Assembly (NCBI GenBank): GCA_947460825.1
Contig: CANHHA010000005.1
Span: 26,026 to 90,025, forward strand
Length of the DNA stretch: 64,000 bases
Source of the DNA: Flavobacteriales bacterium
GTDB lineage: Bacteria; Bacteroidota; Bacteroidia; Flavobacteriales_D; Crocinitomicaceae
Reading direction: 5' to 3'
How positions within the stretch are numbered: position 1 is the first letter of the stretch; every line of letters starts with the position of its first letter. Below, in pieces: positions 59,141 through 63,976 of the stretch. Position numbers and translations under genes: made by a program. The notes beneath the pieces are model-generated. The model searched no databases and had not been told where the DNA came from. It saw only the letters and a list, made by a program, of their open reading frames with translations.

Positions 59141-59205
59141 ATTTGTGTTTTTACGAAAATAAGATAATTATTAGGATGTTATGTATCTTCACGAAAAAAA
59201 TCAGT

Positions 59206-60099
59206 ATGTACGACATCATCGGAGACATTCACGGACATGGGGACGAATTGGAAATCTTGCTCCAAAAATTAGGTTATCAACGATTGAATGGAGTTTATCA
59301 GCATCCCTCACGTCAAGCTATTTTTCTGGGTGACTTCATTGATCGTGGACCTAACATTCGAGGGGTATTGCACATCGTAAAGGATATGGTGGATTCAGGA
59401 TTTGCCCAGGCCATCATGGGAAACCATGAGTTTAATGCGGTTTGTTTTGCTACAAAAAACAAAATAGAGGGTGGTTATTTTCGCGAACATAGTGTAGAAA
59501 AGATAAAACAGCACTTAAGAACCTTAGAACAATTCCGACCATTCCCCAAAGAATGGGATATGTTCTTAACTTGGTTCAAACACCTTCCCATGTTCTTGGA
59601 ATTAGATCACTGTAAAATGGTACATGCGTATTGGAATGATGATAATATCACATGGTTGAAGAAAAATTATCGTCCAACGGAAGAGGGATTAAGTCATGAA
59701 TTTTTAGCCAACTGTTATCAAAAAGAATTGCCTGGATTTAAGCCCGTAGAAGAATCCTTAAAAGGACCTGAACATAAGCTCCCAGAAGGGCAATACATGG
59801 TTGATAAGGAAGGAATTTTACGCGAGGAGTGTCGTTTACGCTGGTGGGCCACAGAAAAAGAGACCATGGGGCAGGGCGTCATGGAATGTCCGGAAGCCTT
59901 AGTGGATGACCCCATACCGGATGGTGTAGATCGTTCTGTTTTTACTTCAGATAGACCTGTTTTTTTTGGTCATTATTGGTTGAGCGGAATTCCCGAAATT
60001 GTTAATGAGCATGCCATCTGTTTGGATTATTCTGTAGCAAAGGGGGGGAGATTAGTGGCTGCGCGAATCACTGAAGGAAAAATTAGTTTGATTTATTAA
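59206..60099 (+). CDS. Calcineurin-like metallophosphoesterase (PrpA/PrpB / ApaH-like Ser/Thr or dinucleotide phosphatase)
   Basis: MYDIIGDIHGHGDEL, GDFIDRGP, GNHEFN and FFGHYW form the PPP-family motif set. The start is placed at the ATG giving MYDIIGDIHG; the track ORF starts at 59143. It is divergent from the ten-gene operon. Confidence 0.8.
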   Translation: MYDIIGDIHGHGDELEILLQKLGYQRLNGVYQHPSRQAIFLGDFIDRGPNIRGVLHIVKDMVDSGFAQAIMGNHEFNAVCFATKNKIEGGYFREHSVEKIKQHLRTLEQFRPFPKEWDMFLTWFKHLPMFLELDHCKMVHAYWNDDNITWLKKNYRPTEEGLSHEFLANCYQKELPGFKPVEESLKGPEHKLPEGQYMVDKEGILREECRLRWWATEKETMGQGVMECPEALVDDPIPDGVDRSVFTSDRPVFFGHYWLSGIPEIVNEHAICLDYSVAKGGRLVAARITEGKISLIY

Positions 60100-60123: not shown

Positions 60124-60131
60124 TATTTTTG
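60124..60131 (+). promoter_or_regulatory. Candidate -7 promoter box upstream of the tRNA leader
   Basis: TATTTTTG is a perfect TAnnTTTG match. I see no convincing -33 TTTG at canonical spacing. If used, the transcript would include both repeat units and the tRNA. Confidence 0.3.
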
Positions 60132-60178
60132 CAGTCCGTTAGCGGTAAAATTGAAATACGTTGCTGTAAAGTAACTTT

Positions 60179-60259
60179 GGTCCTATAGCTTCCCGACGAT
60201 CACTGCGTTCGGCCGGGACAGTCCCCGAAGAGTCGGGACAGGCGAATTCGCTAATAGGA
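60179..60259 (+). repeat. tRNA-5'-end-derived structured repeat, unit 1 (81 nt)
   Basis: It starts with GGTCCTATAGCT, identical to tRNA nt 1-12. An inner hairpin TCCCGAC...GTCGGGA follows, and the unit ends GCTAATAGGA, complementary to its own 5' end with one bulge. Relative to unit 2 it has a ~20 nt internal insertion (GGCCGGGACAGTCCCCGAAGA). Confidence 0.7.
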
Positions 60260-60293
60260 AAAAAAGAATATGAATGTTATCTTCGGATAATTT

Positions 60294-60354
60294 GGTCCTA
60301 TAGCTTCCCGACGATCACTGCGTTCTGTCGGGACAGGCGAACTCGCTATAGGAC
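60294..60354 (+). repeat. tRNA-5'-end-derived structured repeat, unit 2 (61 nt)
   Basis: The sequence is GGTCCTATAGC-T-TCCCGAC-GATCACTGCGTTCT-GTCGGGA-CAGGCGAACTC-GCTATAGGAC. It has a 10-bp closing stem and a 7-bp inner hairpin. It is preceded by the same ~30-nt leader that precedes the real tRNA (TATGAWTGTTATCTTCGGATAATTT, containing a TTATC-TTCG-GATAA hairpin). Confidence 0.7.
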
Positions 60355-60388
60355 AATAAATAATATGATTGTTATCTTCGGATAATTT

Positions 60389-60462
60389 GGTCCTATAGCT
60401 CATTCGGTTAGAGCAACTGACTCATAATCAGTAGGTGCTTGGTTCGATTCCAAGTGGGACCA
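60389..60462 (+). tRNA. tRNA with CAT anticodon (elongator Met, or Ile2 read via lysidine)
   Basis: A hand-folded 74-nt cloverleaf gives acceptor GGTCCTA/TGGGACC, D arm GCTC/GAGC and anticodon arm ACTGA-CTCATAA-TCAGT. The T arm is CTTGG-TTCGATT-CCAAG and the discriminator is A. No CCA is encoded. It is not an initiator, since the anticodon stem has no GGG/CCC. The C4:G69 and C5:G68 pairs are the E. coli TilS determinants, so Ile2 is possible. Confidence 0.85.
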
Positions 60463-60472
60463 CACCACCCTA

Positions 60473-60498
60473 AAAGCCCCTAAAAAAGGGGCTTTTTC
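60473..60498 (+). terminator. Rho-independent terminator after the tRNA
   Basis: The stem is AAAGCCCC/GGGGCTTT with loop TAAAAAA, followed by a T-run. Confidence 0.6.
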
Positions 60499-60578
60499 AA
60501 TTTTAATTCACCTTTTTTATTTTCAAATCGAATTAGTAAATTGTCACAAATATTTCCTATTTTTGTGACAGATTAAAA

Positions 60579-61199
60579 GTGAAATTAGAAATGAAAAGTA
60601 TTGAAAAACAAATAGAAAAGTCGATTACAACCAAGCGTAAAGGTACTTTGTTTCTTCCCGATGATTTTTTAAGTTATGGTTCATCCGAAGCAATTCGTAA
60701 AGCCCTAGGACGTTTGGAAGATAAAAAGATAATTATCAGAGTTTCCCAAGGTATTTATGTACAGCCTAAGATAAGTAAACTGATTGGACCTCTATCACCT
60801 TCAGCGGAGGAAGTCGCCGAAGCCATAGCAAAAAGAGATAAAATCAGAACCATACCGACAGGAAGTTACGCTTTGAATGCTTTGGGATTAAGTTCTCAAG
60901 TACCTATGAAAATTGTTTTACTTACAGATGGTTCGCCAAGAGAAATCAAAGTCGGAAAGCGAACAATAAAATTCAAAAGAACTACACCAAAAAACTTGAT
61001 GGCAAAAGGAAAAATAAGTCGCCTTGTCATACAAGCACTAAAAGAAATAGGTATTGGCAAGATAAAAATAGAGGAAGAGCATAAAATACTTGAATTGTTG
61101 AAAAAAGAAAACATTATAGACCTTAAACACGACATTGCCTTAGCACCGGTATGGATTCAAAAACTAATGAAAAAAGCATTGACTGATGGCCAAAATTGA
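60579..61199 (+). CDS. AbiEi-like antitoxin (DUF6088-type) of a type IV toxin-antitoxin pair
   Basis: The pattern KRKGTLFLPDDFLSYGSSEAIRKALGRLEDKKIIIRVSQGIYVQPK...LLTDGSPREIKVGKRTIKFK matches DUF6088/AbiEi-family antitoxins. It overlaps the AbiEii gene by 14 nt. The start may be the ATG at 60591. Confidence 0.6.
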   Translation: MKLEMKSIEKQIEKSITTKRKGTLFLPDDFLSYGSSEAIRKALGRLEDKKIIIRVSQGIYVQPKISKLIGPLSPSAEEVAEAIAKRDKIRTIPTGSYALNALGLSSQVPMKIVLLTDGSPREIKVGKRTIKFKRTTPKNLMAKGKISRLVIQALKEIGIGKIKIEEEHKILELLKKENIIDLKHDIALAPVWIQKLMKKALTDGQN

Positions 61200-62232
61200 T
61201 TTTCACAAATTAAAACAATCTGAGAGAGAAGCAATTTTCAATGAGATAGCAACCTTTGAAGGTATGAAACCCTTTGCCGTCGAAAAAGACTGGTGGGTAA
61301 GCCTAACGTTAGAAATTATTTTTCAGATGGGGATTTCAAAACACTTGGTGTTTAAAGGAGGAACCTCATTGAGTAAAGCCTGGAAATTGATAAATCGTTT
61401 TTCCGAAGATATCGATTTAGCAATCGATATGGACTTTTTTATAACTCCAACGAAAAACTGGTCAAAAAGTGAACGAACTCAGCTAAGAAAGAAAGCAGGC
61501 AAATACTCAACAGAAATTTTCTTTCAACAATTACAACAAGAGTTCAATCAAAGAGGATACAGTGAACTTAAATTTAACATAATTGAAACAAACGAAAGCG
61601 ATAAAGATCCGAGAATATTAGAGATTTTTTATCCGAATATCATTGGACTTGAAACAGATTATATTTTACCTCGTGTACAAATAGATGTAAGTTGCCGCTC
61701 ATTAAGAGAACCATATACTATAAAAATGTTAGGTTCATTAGTCGATGAAGTATATAAAGATAAAGATTTTGCAGAACCATTATTTGCCGTTCCTACAGTC
61801 ATTCCAGAACGTACCTTTCTGGAAAAACTTTTCCTTCTTCACGAAGAATTTCATCGTCCTGCAGAAAAAATGCGCGTAGACAGATTGAGCAGACACATAT
61901 ACGATGTATATCATCTCTCAAAAGCAGGAATTGCTATAAACGCTATTAGTGATCAAGAGTTGTATGAAACAATTGTTCAACATAGATATAAATTTTCAAA
62001 AATTGGCGGCGTTAATTACAATGCTCATAATCCAAAAACAGTTAACCCTATTCCCCCTGAAAATGTAATTAGTGATTGGGAGTCGGATTACACAAAAATG
62101 AGAGAGGATATGATTTACGAGCAAAATCCGCCAACTTTTGTCGATTTAATTGATTGTTTAAAAGAAATTCGAGAACAACTTAAAAGTGTGAATTGGGAAT
62201 TTGACTTAAGTTTTCCCAATACTGAAATTTAA
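61186..62232 (+). CDS. Nucleotidyltransferase AbiEii/AbiGii family toxin (DUF1814)
   Basis: The motifs EKDWWVS, LVFKGGTSLSKAW..INRFSEDIDL and SRHIYDVYHL are typical of AbiEii. Confidence 0.85.
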   Translation: MAKIDFHKLKQSEREAIFNEIATFEGMKPFAVEKDWWVSLTLEIIFQMGISKHLVFKGGTSLSKAWKLINRFSEDIDLAIDMDFFITPTKNWSKSERTQLRKKAGKYSTEIFFQQLQQEFNQRGYSELKFNIIETNESDKDPRILEIFYPNIIGLETDYILPRVQIDVSCRSLREPYTIKMLGSLVDEVYKDKDFAEPLFAVPTVIPERTFLEKLFLLHEEFHRPAEKMRVDRLSRHIYDVYHLSKAGIAINAISDQELYETIVQHRYKFSKIGGVNYNAHNPKTVNPIPPENVISDWESDYTKMREDMIYEQNPPTFVDLIDCLKEIREQLKSVNWEFDLSFPNTEI

Positions 62233-62641: not shown

Positions 62642-63976
62642 TTACTGCACCGTGAGTTTTTTAATAAAAATCTTTTCGTTTAAATTAAATTGGAGCATGT
62701 ACATTCCACTTGGGTAATTCGAAACATCTAGTGTGTATAAGGTGATTCCGGCAAGAATTTCGATTTGTTTCGTTTCTAGTAATTTGCCTTCCGGACTGAT
62801 CAGTGTATAGTCCAAATCCGTTGGTTTTTTTGAAGCAATAGAAATGCTAACTTCTGTTTCGCAAGGATTGGGATGCAAGCCAATGTTGGTGGATTGGATA
62901 GCACAATCTGTTTTCAGGGGGCCATACATTTCAAAAGCTCCATTGAAATCGAATTGCTTTAAGCGGTAGTACTTTTGCTTCCTTGATGCATCGTGATCTA
63001 CCGAATAATAATTTATTAGCTCTTGCGAAAACCCAGCCGCAGGAAGCGTTTTCCTTATTTCCCAATTTACACCATCTAAACTTGATTCCAATTGGAAGTA
63101 ATCGCTGTTGTGTTCCGAAGAAGTTTGCCAAATTAGTTCAACATCTTCTTCCTCACAATTCAATTTAAAAGAGGACATAGTTACTGGTAAAGCCGAGCCT
63201 CCATTGAACGCAAATGTTCCGTCGGCTGTAAATTTATGAACTTGATACATGACTCCATTTGTACCATTGGTGCCGTTGCCAGTGTAAGAAGTTATCGTTC
63301 CTCCAGTGGCTAAAGCCGATGAACTTGCATATCTAATGATTACAGTGCCAGCAGTTGCTGATCCAGGGCCTCCAACACCACCACTTCTTGCATTTTGTCC
63401 CCTTGCGCCTGCACCAATACTTCCAAGCCCTGAATTTCCAAATCCGCCAGGAGAACCACTCCAATTTCCTCCTCCTCCTCCTCCTCCATAATATGTTGCA
63501 GTATCCAGTATAACAATTAGTTGACCATTACCGCCATTGTTAGGGGTGGTTCCAGCCAAGCCATTACCTCCATTACCATATAATGTTCCATTAGAACCAC
63601 CTGTGCCAGACGTACTACCTGAAGCGTTAGAACCTTTAGATCCTCCAGCAGCTGTAATGGTTGAAAAACCAGAAGCGCTAATTGAAGAAGGATTCCCATT
63701 AGTACCGTTATTCGTAGTGCCCCAAGCAGGACTTGCTCCTCCCCCCCCTATGGTTATGTTATAAACTATTGTAGTAAAGGTTGTTGTTCCCGATACTACT
63801 GAACCTCCTGAACCACCACCTCCTCCTTTTTGGGACGCACTTGCCGTTCCCGCTCCACCGCCACCACCAACAACAACATAATCAACCGAAATTTGCGCAT
63901 GCGAAATCACCGAAAAGAAGCCACATAGAATAAGGAACATTGCTGCACGAAAAAAAACAGTTGCATTTTTGGTCAT
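62642..63976 (-). CDS. Secreted glycine-rich protein with T9SS type A C-terminal sorting domain
   Basis: It has a signal peptide. About 230 aa of Gly-rich repeats follow (GGGGGAGT, GGGGGSGGS, GGSKGSNASGSTSGTGGSNG, YYGGGGGGGNW). A beta-rich domain and a C-terminal LHPNPCETEVSISI...KKLTVQ tail complete the protein. Confidence 0.7.
   Translation of the reverse strand: MTKNATVFFRAAMFLILCGFFSVISHAQISVDYVVVGGGGGAGTASASQKGGGGGSGGSVVSGTTTFTTIVYNITIGGGGASPAWGTTNNGTNGNPSSISASGFSTITAAGGSKGSNASGSTSGTGGSNGTLYGNGGNGLAGTTPNNGGNGQLIVILDTATYYGGGGGGGNWSGSPGGFGNSGLGSIGAGARGQNARSGGVGGPGSATAGTVIIRYASSSALATGGTITSYTGNGTNGTNGVMYQVHKFTADGTFAFNGGSALPVTMSSFKLNCEEEDVELIWQTSSEHNSDYFQLESSLDGVNWEIRKTLPAAGFSQELINYYSVDHDASRKQKYYRLKQFDFNGAFEMYGPLKTDCAIQSTNIGLHPNPCETEVSISIASKKPTDLDYTLISPEGKLLETKQIEILAGITLYTLDVSNYPSGMYMLQFNLNEKIFIKKLTVQ

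Follow-up and report, generated by a model that had tools for sequence, protein, structure and literature searches.

A tRNA-matched fold-back module upstream of bacterial tRNA genes: a candidate leader element for tRNA folding and processing

What are the two structured repeats that stand directly upstream of a tRNA(CAT) gene in a contig of a Flavobacteriales bacterium (CANHHA010000005.1), and why do they resemble that tRNA? The contig was analysed over a stretch of 64,000 nucleotides (nt), which is referred to here as the window. An earlier reading, made from the sequence only, had noticed that two units begin with nucleotides 1-12 of the tRNA and fold back on them. This was confirmed, as the sequence GGTCCTATAGCT, which represents nt 1-12 of the tRNA, was found to start at positions 60179 (unit 1), 60294 (unit 2) and 60389 (the tRNA itself). 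Three readings had been offered, namely scars of recombination or integration, acceptor-stem minihelices processed by RNase P, and an undescribed small RNA co-transcribed with the tRNA. The last appears to be the best supported, being conserved, having stems that covary and lying between a putative promoter and the tRNA. We consider it likely that the units are a real, selected RNA element matched to the tRNA that they precede. The best overall explanation, which we hold with somewhat less than even confidence, is a conserved leader module, transcribed from the tRNA's own promoter, that acts in cis as a conformational device.

The module begins with A', which repeats tRNA nt 1-12 in the sense direction, and continues with a hairpin (P2) and an uninterrupted antisense strand made up of two segments, J and a*. 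Hairpin P2 (UCCCG..CGGGA, then CARG) is inserted exactly after nucleotide 12. Segment J is complementary to D-loop nt 18-14 and carries UC after this stretch, and a* is complementary to the tRNA from nt 11 down to about nt 4. The flanks of P2 are conserved as U-CCCG or CCUCC on the 5' side and CGGG or GGCGG-A on the 3' side, again followed by CARG, and its interior ranges from a 3-nt loop up to long extensions, many of which carry the apex AC-UNC-GU. The three tRNA-derived segments (A', J and a*) were all observed to vary along with the cognate tRNA.

Modules of this kind were found well beyond the window. All loci come from patterns derived from the family itself, and the numbers of loci and carriers are to be read as lower bounds. 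The first scan covered one genome per species, with the two stem arms fixed and any interior allowed, and gave 17 Flavobacteriales/Crocinitomicaceae loci with one to three units directly 5' of the same tRNA and with interiors that were different yet related. A second scan, in which the conserved interior GCUUCC...GGACARGCAACUUCGC was fixed and the stems were unconstrained, gave 94 stretches, all of which precede a tRNA on the same strand except four chance matches in open reading frames (ORFs). The tRNAs behind these modules include CAT, Ala-GGC (the most frequent), Ala-CGC, His, Val-TAC, Val-GAC, Arg, Thr, Lys and Pro. The third and fourth scans left J unconstrained and added Arg-CCG, Arg-ACG, Arg-CCT, Phe, Asn, Asp, Ile-GAT, Lys-TTT, Thr-TGT and Pro-GGG. 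Together with the covariance model described below, the pattern scans place the module in front of at least 20 tRNA isoacceptor types. A metagenome scan in which only the arms of one tRNA-Ala were fixed gave 11 matches; six of them precede tRNA-Ala, all with the conserved hairpin and J, and the other five are unrelated sequence.

A covariance model (R1) was trained on 38 short units, none of them from the window genome, and gave 129, 74 and 21 matches in the retrieved loci. Within the 64-kb window it gave exactly two matches, which are the two units. The carriers amount to at least about 140 species-level genomes, an estimate in which about ten assemblies give two loci each, and they are mostly Bacteroidota and Marinimicrobia. 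Taxon names are used here as labelled in the sequence records, and some labels of metagenome-assembled genomes (MAGs) look wrong. For example, a Chryseobacterium gleum MAG (L005) and a Polynucleobacter MAG (L009) carry a near-unchanged locus of the Crocinitomicaceae type, and these contigs are probably mis-binned. Several genomes carry the module at two different tRNA genes with the arms matched to each, as in one Polaribacter MAG where it is found at His (L104) and at Ala (L136). Among the carriers, the records name Thermobacterium salinum TK19130 (L025), Carboxylicivirga fragile N1Y90 (L070), Allomuricauda sp. CAU 1633 (L181), Saccharicrinis sp. 156 (L046) and Flavobacteriaceae bacterium 14752 (L095).

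The match between module and tRNA was found to be close. A' agrees with the first 12 nt of the next tRNA at every position in 90/103 and 58/62 units of two sets (148/165 combined). The copies that are not identical agree at 9-11 of the 12 positions, with differences mainly at nt 1-4, and the mean identity of A' with non-cognate tRNAs is 8.0 of 12. Pairing between a* and A' at nt 4-11 was observed in 74-97 of 97 units per position, while nucleotides 1 and 2 are unpaired in 69 and 38 of the 97 units respectively. Because scans 2-4 left the stems unconstrained, the a*/A' match represents real covariation. In alignments A1 and A2, 88.9% and 89.7% of the cells in helices P1 (a* with A') and P2 are paired, against 72% in shuffled alignments and 29-44% when the partner strand is slid. 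Double-sided changes in P1 and P2 occupy 86 cells in A1 and 294 cells in A2, as raw cell counts in which kinship among the genomes is not factored in. The presence of the module in relatives, with stems P1 and P2 that covary, contradicts a scar confined to one lineage.

Segment J was likewise observed to follow the D-loop of the tRNA. Five variants of tRNA nt 13-19 were found, each with its own matching J. The sequence CAGTTGG occurs with J CAACTTC (63/69 loci), CAGCTGG with J of the CAGCTTC type (10/10 loci of the scan with J free), CAATTGG with CAATTTC, CATTCGG, which is the type of the window, with CGAAYTC, and CATCTGG with CAGATTC. In the His, Ala, Met and Arg families both U16 and C16 occur and J is matched each time; therefore, this change occurred repeatedly. 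In alignment A4, J is paired with tRNA nt 14-18 in all scored cells, where nucleotide 16 contributes 15 A-U and 5 G-C pairs. In many genomes, J is also predicted to pair with a D-loop-like segment of the spacer (GAAGUUGC, termed antiJ) to form helix P3. At nucleotide 16 antiJ trails J in the same alignment (3 G-C and 2 G-U), and in L136 and L162 J has changed along with the tRNA to give a G-C pair with C16 while its pair with antiJ is still G-U. As J is ahead of antiJ at these two loci, J follows the tRNA directly. We also noticed one unit, at positions 176-225 of L068, whose J reads CAACUGAGC; it alone among the units seen is fully antisense to tRNA nt 1-18, as nt 12-13 are matched too and the usual UC mismatch is absent.

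In the self-contained state of the module, a* and A' are predicted to form P1. Among loci with spacers of at least 24 nt, GAAGUUG(C), which is complementary to J, occurs in 16/42, at 7-15 nt 5' of the tRNA (mostly 9-13) and farther upstream in the longest spacers. The identity of antiJ was observed to change with that of J, as in CAGCUUC/GGAAGCUG (L114), CGCUU/AAGCG (L143) and CAGAUUC/GAAUCUG (L207), and 95.6% of the P3 cells in alignment A4 are paired. In the subset with antiJ, the predicted helices P1 and P3 combine into an H-type pseudoknot whose J-a* strand is uninterrupted. The spacers of the window units contain no antiJ and these units are not of the pseudoknot type; antiJ was lost in the window lineage, where a local spacer hairpin has taken its place. 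The spacer hairpins show compensatory changes among relatives (GUUAC/GUAAC, GUUGC/GCAAC, GUUGU/ACAAC and UUAUC/GAUAA).

Two structural variants were observed. In the three-way-junction form (L141, L144, L174, L197, L198 and L101), the partner of the D-loop lies inside the unit, in the order sense nt 13-19, loop, antisense nt 19-14, UC and a*. The records in question are labelled Patescibacteria, Omnitrophota, Gammaproteobacteria and others. A few other units (L113, L120, L138, L185 and L187) run on past the hairpin as a longer pseudo-tRNA in the sense orientation and lack the antisense arm; L113, L120 and L187 are classed as type II. In addition, a D-arm-like alternative pairing around P2 (GCUU/ARGC) is present in the minimum-energy fold, and the columns involved are invariant.

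Some further features of P2 are recorded here as side observations. A perfect 16-nt palindrome (CCCGATAGCTATCGGG) or a near copy of it recurs at the apex of P2 or in spacers of unrelated genomes (L070 at 1619-1684, where it is nested in another P2; L081, in P2; L134; and the spacer of L036), and its core TAGC/GCTA corresponds to tRNA nt 8-11 and their complement. On the 3' side of tRNAs in L159, L134, L128, L163 and L187, partial copies of the tRNA 3' half were found in which a UCCCG...CGGGA hairpin replaces the anticodon arm or the T loop; therefore, the same hairpin decorates tRNA fragments on the 3' side too. Pattern matches without a tRNA (L133, L172, L109 and L149) are terminator-like, with AGCUUCCCG...CGGGACAGGCU and a U run, sometimes with an A run before it. 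The shape of P2 with its flanks doubles as a terminator hairpin, and the second hairpin of the L113 unit is nearly identical to the terminator hairpin of its own tRNA.

Are the units transcribed together with the tRNA? The sequence-only reading had proposed that a TAnnTTTG box at 60124 could drive one transcript through both units and the tRNA. The box (TATTTTTG, a Bacteroidota-type -7 element) is present on the plus strand at 60124-60131, and the single transcript that likely starts there is predicted from sequence. A TAnnTTTG box was found within 80 nt 5' of the first unit in 68/91 loci, compared with 3.8% of background windows. It mostly ends 6-50 nt ahead of nucleotide 1, and only 3/80 spacers between unit and tRNA contain one. 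Because the box precedes the units and is rare in the spacers, the units appear to form the 5' leader RNA of the tRNA transcript.

The tRNA(CAT) of the window lies at 60389-60463 on the plus strand, as do the units and spacers described here. It was called by ARAGORN, scores 69.5 bits with the Rfam tRNA model and is the sole tRNA called at the locus; its nt 1-18 are the stretch that the units copy in sense and antisense. It is probably a tRNA-Ile2 of the lysidine type, because its best E. coli relatives (full-length identity 76%) are annotated as tRNA-Ile and because the pairs C4-G69 and C5-G68, read from the sequence, are present. The reverse strand of 60389-60463 scores 43.6 bits with the Rfam Plastid-ycf2 5'UTR family, which is under the family threshold. 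The score is probably explained by the position of that plastid element opposite trnI-CAU, and it agrees with the Ile2 type.

Unit 2 (60294-60354) is the better preserved of the two and is matched by model R1 at 60294-60355 (44.4 bits, E = 4e-12). Its A' occupies 60294-60305 and is followed by P2 (UCCCGAC...GUCGGGA, 60306-60333), J (CAGGCGAACTC, as RNA CAGGCGAACUC, 60334-60344) and a* (GCTATAGGAC, as RNA GCUAUAGGAC, 60345-60354). The closing stem GTCCTATAGC/GCTATAGGAC consists of 10 perfect base pairs between a* and nt 2-11 of A', so that both the stem and the TCCCGAC...GTCGGGA hairpin described earlier hold for this unit. Its predicted fold has an energy of -25.2 kcal/mol (z = -3.2 against shuffles).

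The closing stem had been described for both units and is imperfect in unit 1 (60179-60259; model R1 match at 60180-60260, 34.5 bits, E = 8e-9). Here, the sense copy (60179-60190) is followed by two copies of the conserved hairpin (60191-60218 and 60222-60238), by a J segment, CAGGCGAATTC, that contains CGAAT, the antisense of tRNA nt 14-18 (60239-60249), and by a degenerate antisense arm, GCTAATAGGA (as RNA GCUAAUAGGA, 60250-60259), which is imperfect because one A has been inserted. The internal duplication of about 20 nt that had been reported was found to be 20 nt long and represents the second inner hairpin at 60222-60238, which unit 2 does not have. This two-hairpin form is also found in L014, L115 and L195. 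Folded alone, unit 1 is no better than shuffled sequence (z = -1.35).

A small hairpin lies 2-3 nt 5' of each A' and of the window tRNA. The one in front of unit 1 (GUUGC-UGUAAA-GUAAC, 60160-60175, 3 nt from the unit) has the form found in spacers of related genomes. Spacer 1 (60260-60293) contains an A-rich linker and the hairpin GUUAUC-UUCG-GAUAAU at 60276-60291, and spacer 2 (60355-60388) contains an A/U-rich linker and the same hairpin at 60371-60386, which ends 2 nt 5' of the tRNA. The shared leader with a UUCG hairpin was thus correctly noticed in both spacers, with a length of 34 nt in each rather than about 30.

What could such a leader do? The module may control the folding and processing of the tRNA that it precedes. 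Two partners complementary to the antisense strand exist, namely the decoys in the leader (A' and antiJ) and the first 18 nt of the tRNA, in which nt 12-13 form a fixed 2-nt mismatch. In the window, the 3' part of each unit is complementary to the tRNA far past the 10-nt stem, a feature that the sequence-only reading had not noticed; the 17-nt arms 60338-60354 and 60390-60406 are 82% complementary. The antisense strand J-a* could therefore pair alternatively with nt 1-18 of the real downstream tRNA, a state that would release A' to pair with the 3' acceptor strand of the tRNA. The leader decoys and the tRNA 5' region would compete for the antisense strand, and this competition would set when or whether the tRNA body becomes a cloverleaf and RNase P cuts, with the leader either masking or releasing the tRNA 5' strand. 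The conserved junction or the apex of P2 might be the site of a factor that tips the balance. The unconstrained minimum-energy fold of unit 2 with its spacer and the tRNA (-58.2 kcal/mol) is the tRNA-bound conformer, in which a* pairs with tRNA nt 2-11 and A' with the 3' acceptor strand, and the alternative that combines hairpin and cloverleaf has -54.0 kcal/mol. Over 62 loci, the mean duplex energies are -19.3 kcal/mol for the antisense strand with the tRNA, -14.1 kcal/mol with A' and -12.0 kcal/mol with non-cognate tRNAs. Where it is present, P3 contributes about -11 to -14 kcal/mol.

Several points weigh against this switch, and we put the specific mechanism forward only as a tentative possibility. 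It is drawn from complementarity and from nearest-neighbour energies, which ignore the tertiary structure of the tRNA. As A' is synthesised before a*, the self-contained state should come first. The spacers of L090, L095 and L082 are only 0-5 nt long and therefore a* is unable to fold onto the adjacent tRNA 5' strand at these loci. The conserved UC faces tRNA nt 12-13 and makes the antisense strand a poorer partner for the tRNA than for antiJ, and the type II variants L113, L120 and L187 have no antisense arm at all. As parts of the core were held constant in two scans, the conservation of those bases is partly built in. Finally, the tracking of the tRNA could stem from templated mutation between inverted repeats together with gene conversion and not from selection for pairing. 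A broader version of the switch, about which we are rather doubtful, is a general, programmable class of cis riboregulators for tRNA genes in several phyla, each consisting of a decoy and a guide for nt 1-18. The junction hairpin may then bind a factor, and the precursor would toggle between a processable cloverleaf and a masked form. If true, the maturation of tRNAs would be controlled gene by gene or be subject to quality control, which is a regulatory layer not known in bacteria.

The surroundings of the units bear on the remaining explanations. A metallophosphoesterase gene upstream (59143-60099) stays beside the units and the tRNA in L004, L015, L055 and L030, where the protein identity is 60-70%. 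Directly after the tRNA terminator lie genes for a DUF6088 (AbiEi-like) protein and an AbiEii nucleotidyltransferase toxin (60579-62232), which overlap by 14 nt. This pair is absent from all related loci that keep the units. Because the upstream gene and the units are kept and the DUF6088/AbiEii pair is found in no relative, the module is old at this site and the AbiE defence island appears to be a separate insertion on the 3' side. The copy number of the units varies from one to four per locus, which unequal crossing-over explains. Direct evidence for unequal crossing-over within arrays is given by a four-unit array in L207 (2556-2885 of metagenome contig Ga0256827_10010816), where the antisense arms of units 1 and 2 match the C5 variant of the tRNA, those of units 3 and 4 match G5, which is the state of the tRNA, and unit 2 is chimeric.

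Could the units act apart from the tRNA, or not act at all? They might be cut out by RNase P, acting at the next 5' end, together with RNase E-type cuts in the linkers and released as stable small RNAs of 50-110 nt that work in trans, perhaps by binding a protein through the junction or the apex of P2, or by capturing 5' fragments or unfolded copies of the cognate tRNA. The compact fold with its covariation support, the unpaired CARG and UC and the recurrent apex AC-UNC-GU that are common to different tRNA families, and the A/U-rich linkers are all consistent with this, and tandem copies would increase the dose. But a match to the neighbouring tRNA would not be needed unless that tRNA is the target, and no partner gene co-occurs in the flanks, which vary by locus; we consider such release unlikely. 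We think it slightly less likely again that the units are a functionless fold-back duplication of the tRNA 5' end, spread by the mechanics of DNA alone, with crossing-over and gene conversion holding A' identical and template switching holding the arm complementary. The range of copy numbers, the chimeric unit of L207, the decay of upstream copies (unit 1 of the window, unit 2 of L007, and L013) and the perfect 18-nt antisense of L068, which is the expected product of template switching, would all fit. Such mechanics leave unexplained the conserved flanks of P2, the CARG and the UC mismatch that persists across phyla, as well as the compensatory changes seen both in P2 and in P3/antiJ, which are parts not copied from the tRNA, and the retention of the units at a syntenic locus across 60-70% protein identity. 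Moreover, loci with a single copy offer just 12 nt of direct repeat for conversion, yet identity at 12/12 positions is usual. Recombination, which the sequence-only reading had considered as the source of the units, thus accounts for their number and is not the whole story for an element found in about 140 genomes and at many tRNAs.

An origin in mobile DNA fares worse. The hairpin could be a small mobile or intron-like insertion at the universal UAGCU|CAG site of the D-arm, which would make the units decaying copies of disabled tRNA genes. Its insertion point is constantly between nt 12 and 13, it is found in several phyla, and L113, L120, L138, L185 and L187 carry it at this point with the sense tRNA continuing after it. 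However, each copy seen has an intact gene for the same tRNA downstream and no lone interrupted gene was found; excising the hairpins from type II units yields no tRNA; no copy lies away from a tRNA in the window; no transposase or other enzyme is linked to it; and the antisense arm and antiJ are left unexplained. Viral, phage and plasmid collections gave no copy of the module, either by BLAST of the unit region or, for viral contigs, by a scan with the core pattern, and an origin from phage or plasmid was also dropped on these grounds. We regard an inserted hairpin as improbable. Attachment-site scars, left by integration or excision of a mobile element at the tRNA and tied to the AbiE island, have a negligible probability and are contradicted by the comparison among loci. 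Genes for tRNAs are common integration sites and the DUF6088/AbiEii pair does follow the tRNA, but what is repeated is the tRNA 5' end, at a period of 95-115 nt, neither an integrase nor an ORF lies between the copies at the window locus, the AbiE genes are missing in all relatives that keep the units, and the module occurs at many tRNAs with unrelated neighbours. The link to mobile DNA that had been thought plausible from the position of the units finds no support in these observations.

A number of other identities were tried and rejected. The units are neither tRNAs nor tRNA pseudogenes, as they give no tRNA match with ARAGORN or with the Rfam tRNA model (E <= 10) and homology to the tRNA stops at nucleotide 12. 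Rfam 15 gave no known family over the units in the window (E <= 10) nor in four canonical loci (E <= 1), where only tRNA and noise were matched. An attachment site of an integrative element, which would combine a repeat of the tRNA 3' end with an integrase island, does not agree with a repeat of the 5' 12 nt or with an island that is not conserved with the units. Type III toxin-antitoxin repeats (ToxI-like) or another link to AbiE were dropped because the array leads to a tRNA and a terminator and the DUF6088/AbiEii genes are absent at all other unit loci. A protein-coding or small-peptide gene does not fit a P2 segment whose length, between 14 and 58 nt, changes by any number of nucleotides, and only a chance antisense ORF of 50 amino acids overlaps. 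As tRNA-Ala is the commonest host, a mimic of the microhelix recognised by alanyl-tRNA synthetase (AlaRS) was considered and rejected; only about one in two Ala units retains G3-U70, and nt 1-2 do not pair. Small ribozymes (hammerhead, hepatitis delta virus (HDV)-like, pistol, hatchet and twister) were ruled out by the Rfam results and by strand topology. A function of the minus strand was rejected from the orientation, the position of the promoter and the counts of G-U versus A-C at nt 2-3, a rejection that A9-C mismatches in 12/97 units keep from being airtight.

The transcription unit of the window is closed by an intrinsic terminator, AAAAGCCCCU...AGGGGCUUUUU followed by a T run, at 60472-60501 on the plus strand, which was recognised as an inverted repeat with a T run. 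A perfect 11-nt inverted repeat, TAAAATTGAAA (60146-60156) and TTTCAATTTTA (60495-60505), encloses the leader, the units, the tRNA and the terminator and could join leader to trailer. Because 67 other loci have no similar complementarity, this repeat is probably local or due to chance, and a leader-trailer stem of the rRNA type was rejected for the module. Farther downstream, an ORF on the minus strand (62642-63976) encodes a glycine-rich domain and a Por_Secre_tail sorting domain (type IX secretion), in support of the window being of Bacteroidota origin.

How does the module compare with known systems? The leaders of bacterial rRNA operons (E. coli rrn) form transient pairs both with the trailer, which gives the RNase III stems, and with the mature 16S rRNA at its 5' end. 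The module resembles them as a cis leader that is complementary to the 5' part of a mature RNA in the same transcript, with alternative pairings thought to guide folding and processing. It differs in that its product is a tRNA, that a sense decoy, an inserted hairpin and tandem repeats are added, that it is re-tailored for more than 20 tRNAs and that no general leader-trailer stem was found at its loci. The tandem repeats of E. coli tyrT, which are 178 bp long and each start with the last 19 nt of tRNA-Tyr, likewise lie beside a tRNA gene, carry a piece of the tRNA and vary through unequal recombination, but they lie downstream of it, derive from the tRNA 3' end, are species-specific and show neither a fold-back nor a covarying structure. 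The sequence of T-box leaders is also matched to one particular tRNA; these leaders act on mRNAs, recognise the anticodon and 3' NCCA of a tRNA in trans and have their own Rfam model, none of which applies to the module.

Plant mitochondrial t-elements, mascRNA and viral tRNA-like structures share with the module the placement of tRNA-derived or tRNA-like sequence beside another RNA, which is read by tRNA-processing enzymes. Whereas these elements mimic the shape of a tRNA, with its acceptor and T arms, the units copy only the sequence of nt 1-12. Their helix spans nt 4-11, including nt 8-11, with nt 1-3 and above all nucleotide 1 mostly unpaired, and they contain neither a T arm nor a T-loop motif. 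This anatomy supports neither a t-element/mascRNA identity nor a minihelix cut by RNase P.

In synthetic RNase P riboswitches, a designed 5' leader hides or exposes the leader of a pre-tRNA; these devices are engineered and controlled by a ligand, and a natural counterpart is not reported there (PMC7897497, PMC8925977). As in the proposed function of the module, alternative leader structures just 5' of the tRNA decide the access of RNase P. The synthetic devices, however, target the single-stranded leader and the module would target the 5' strand of the tRNA itself, and no ligand pocket is evident in the module. By analogy, the nearest functional parallels would be the pairing of the rRNA leader with the 16S 5' end and these synthetic riboswitches (PMC7897497). 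The open-access literature, which is the only literature covered, gave no description of such an element, and within that scope we rate the module as a new kind of element.

Even if the module were selfish DNA it would be unusual, because a fold-back repeat would then be evolving in step with a gene of its host. The leaders of bacterial tRNAs are usually regarded as disposable sequences that are removed by RNase P and, to our knowledge, the known control of tRNA supply acts at promoters. A leader matched to its tRNA suggests that some large groups of bacteria have tRNA precursors that carry instructions for their own folding, processing or turnover. If functional, the module would represent a new class of RNA whose sense/antisense logic is simple and programmable, as well as a natural counterpart of the synthetic RNase P riboswitches. 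It would then also offer a new way to approach tRNA homeostasis in lineages that are abundant in the environment, namely Flavobacteriales of fresh water and the sea, Saprospiraceae, Marinimicrobia and bacteria of the Candidate Phyla Radiation (CPR).

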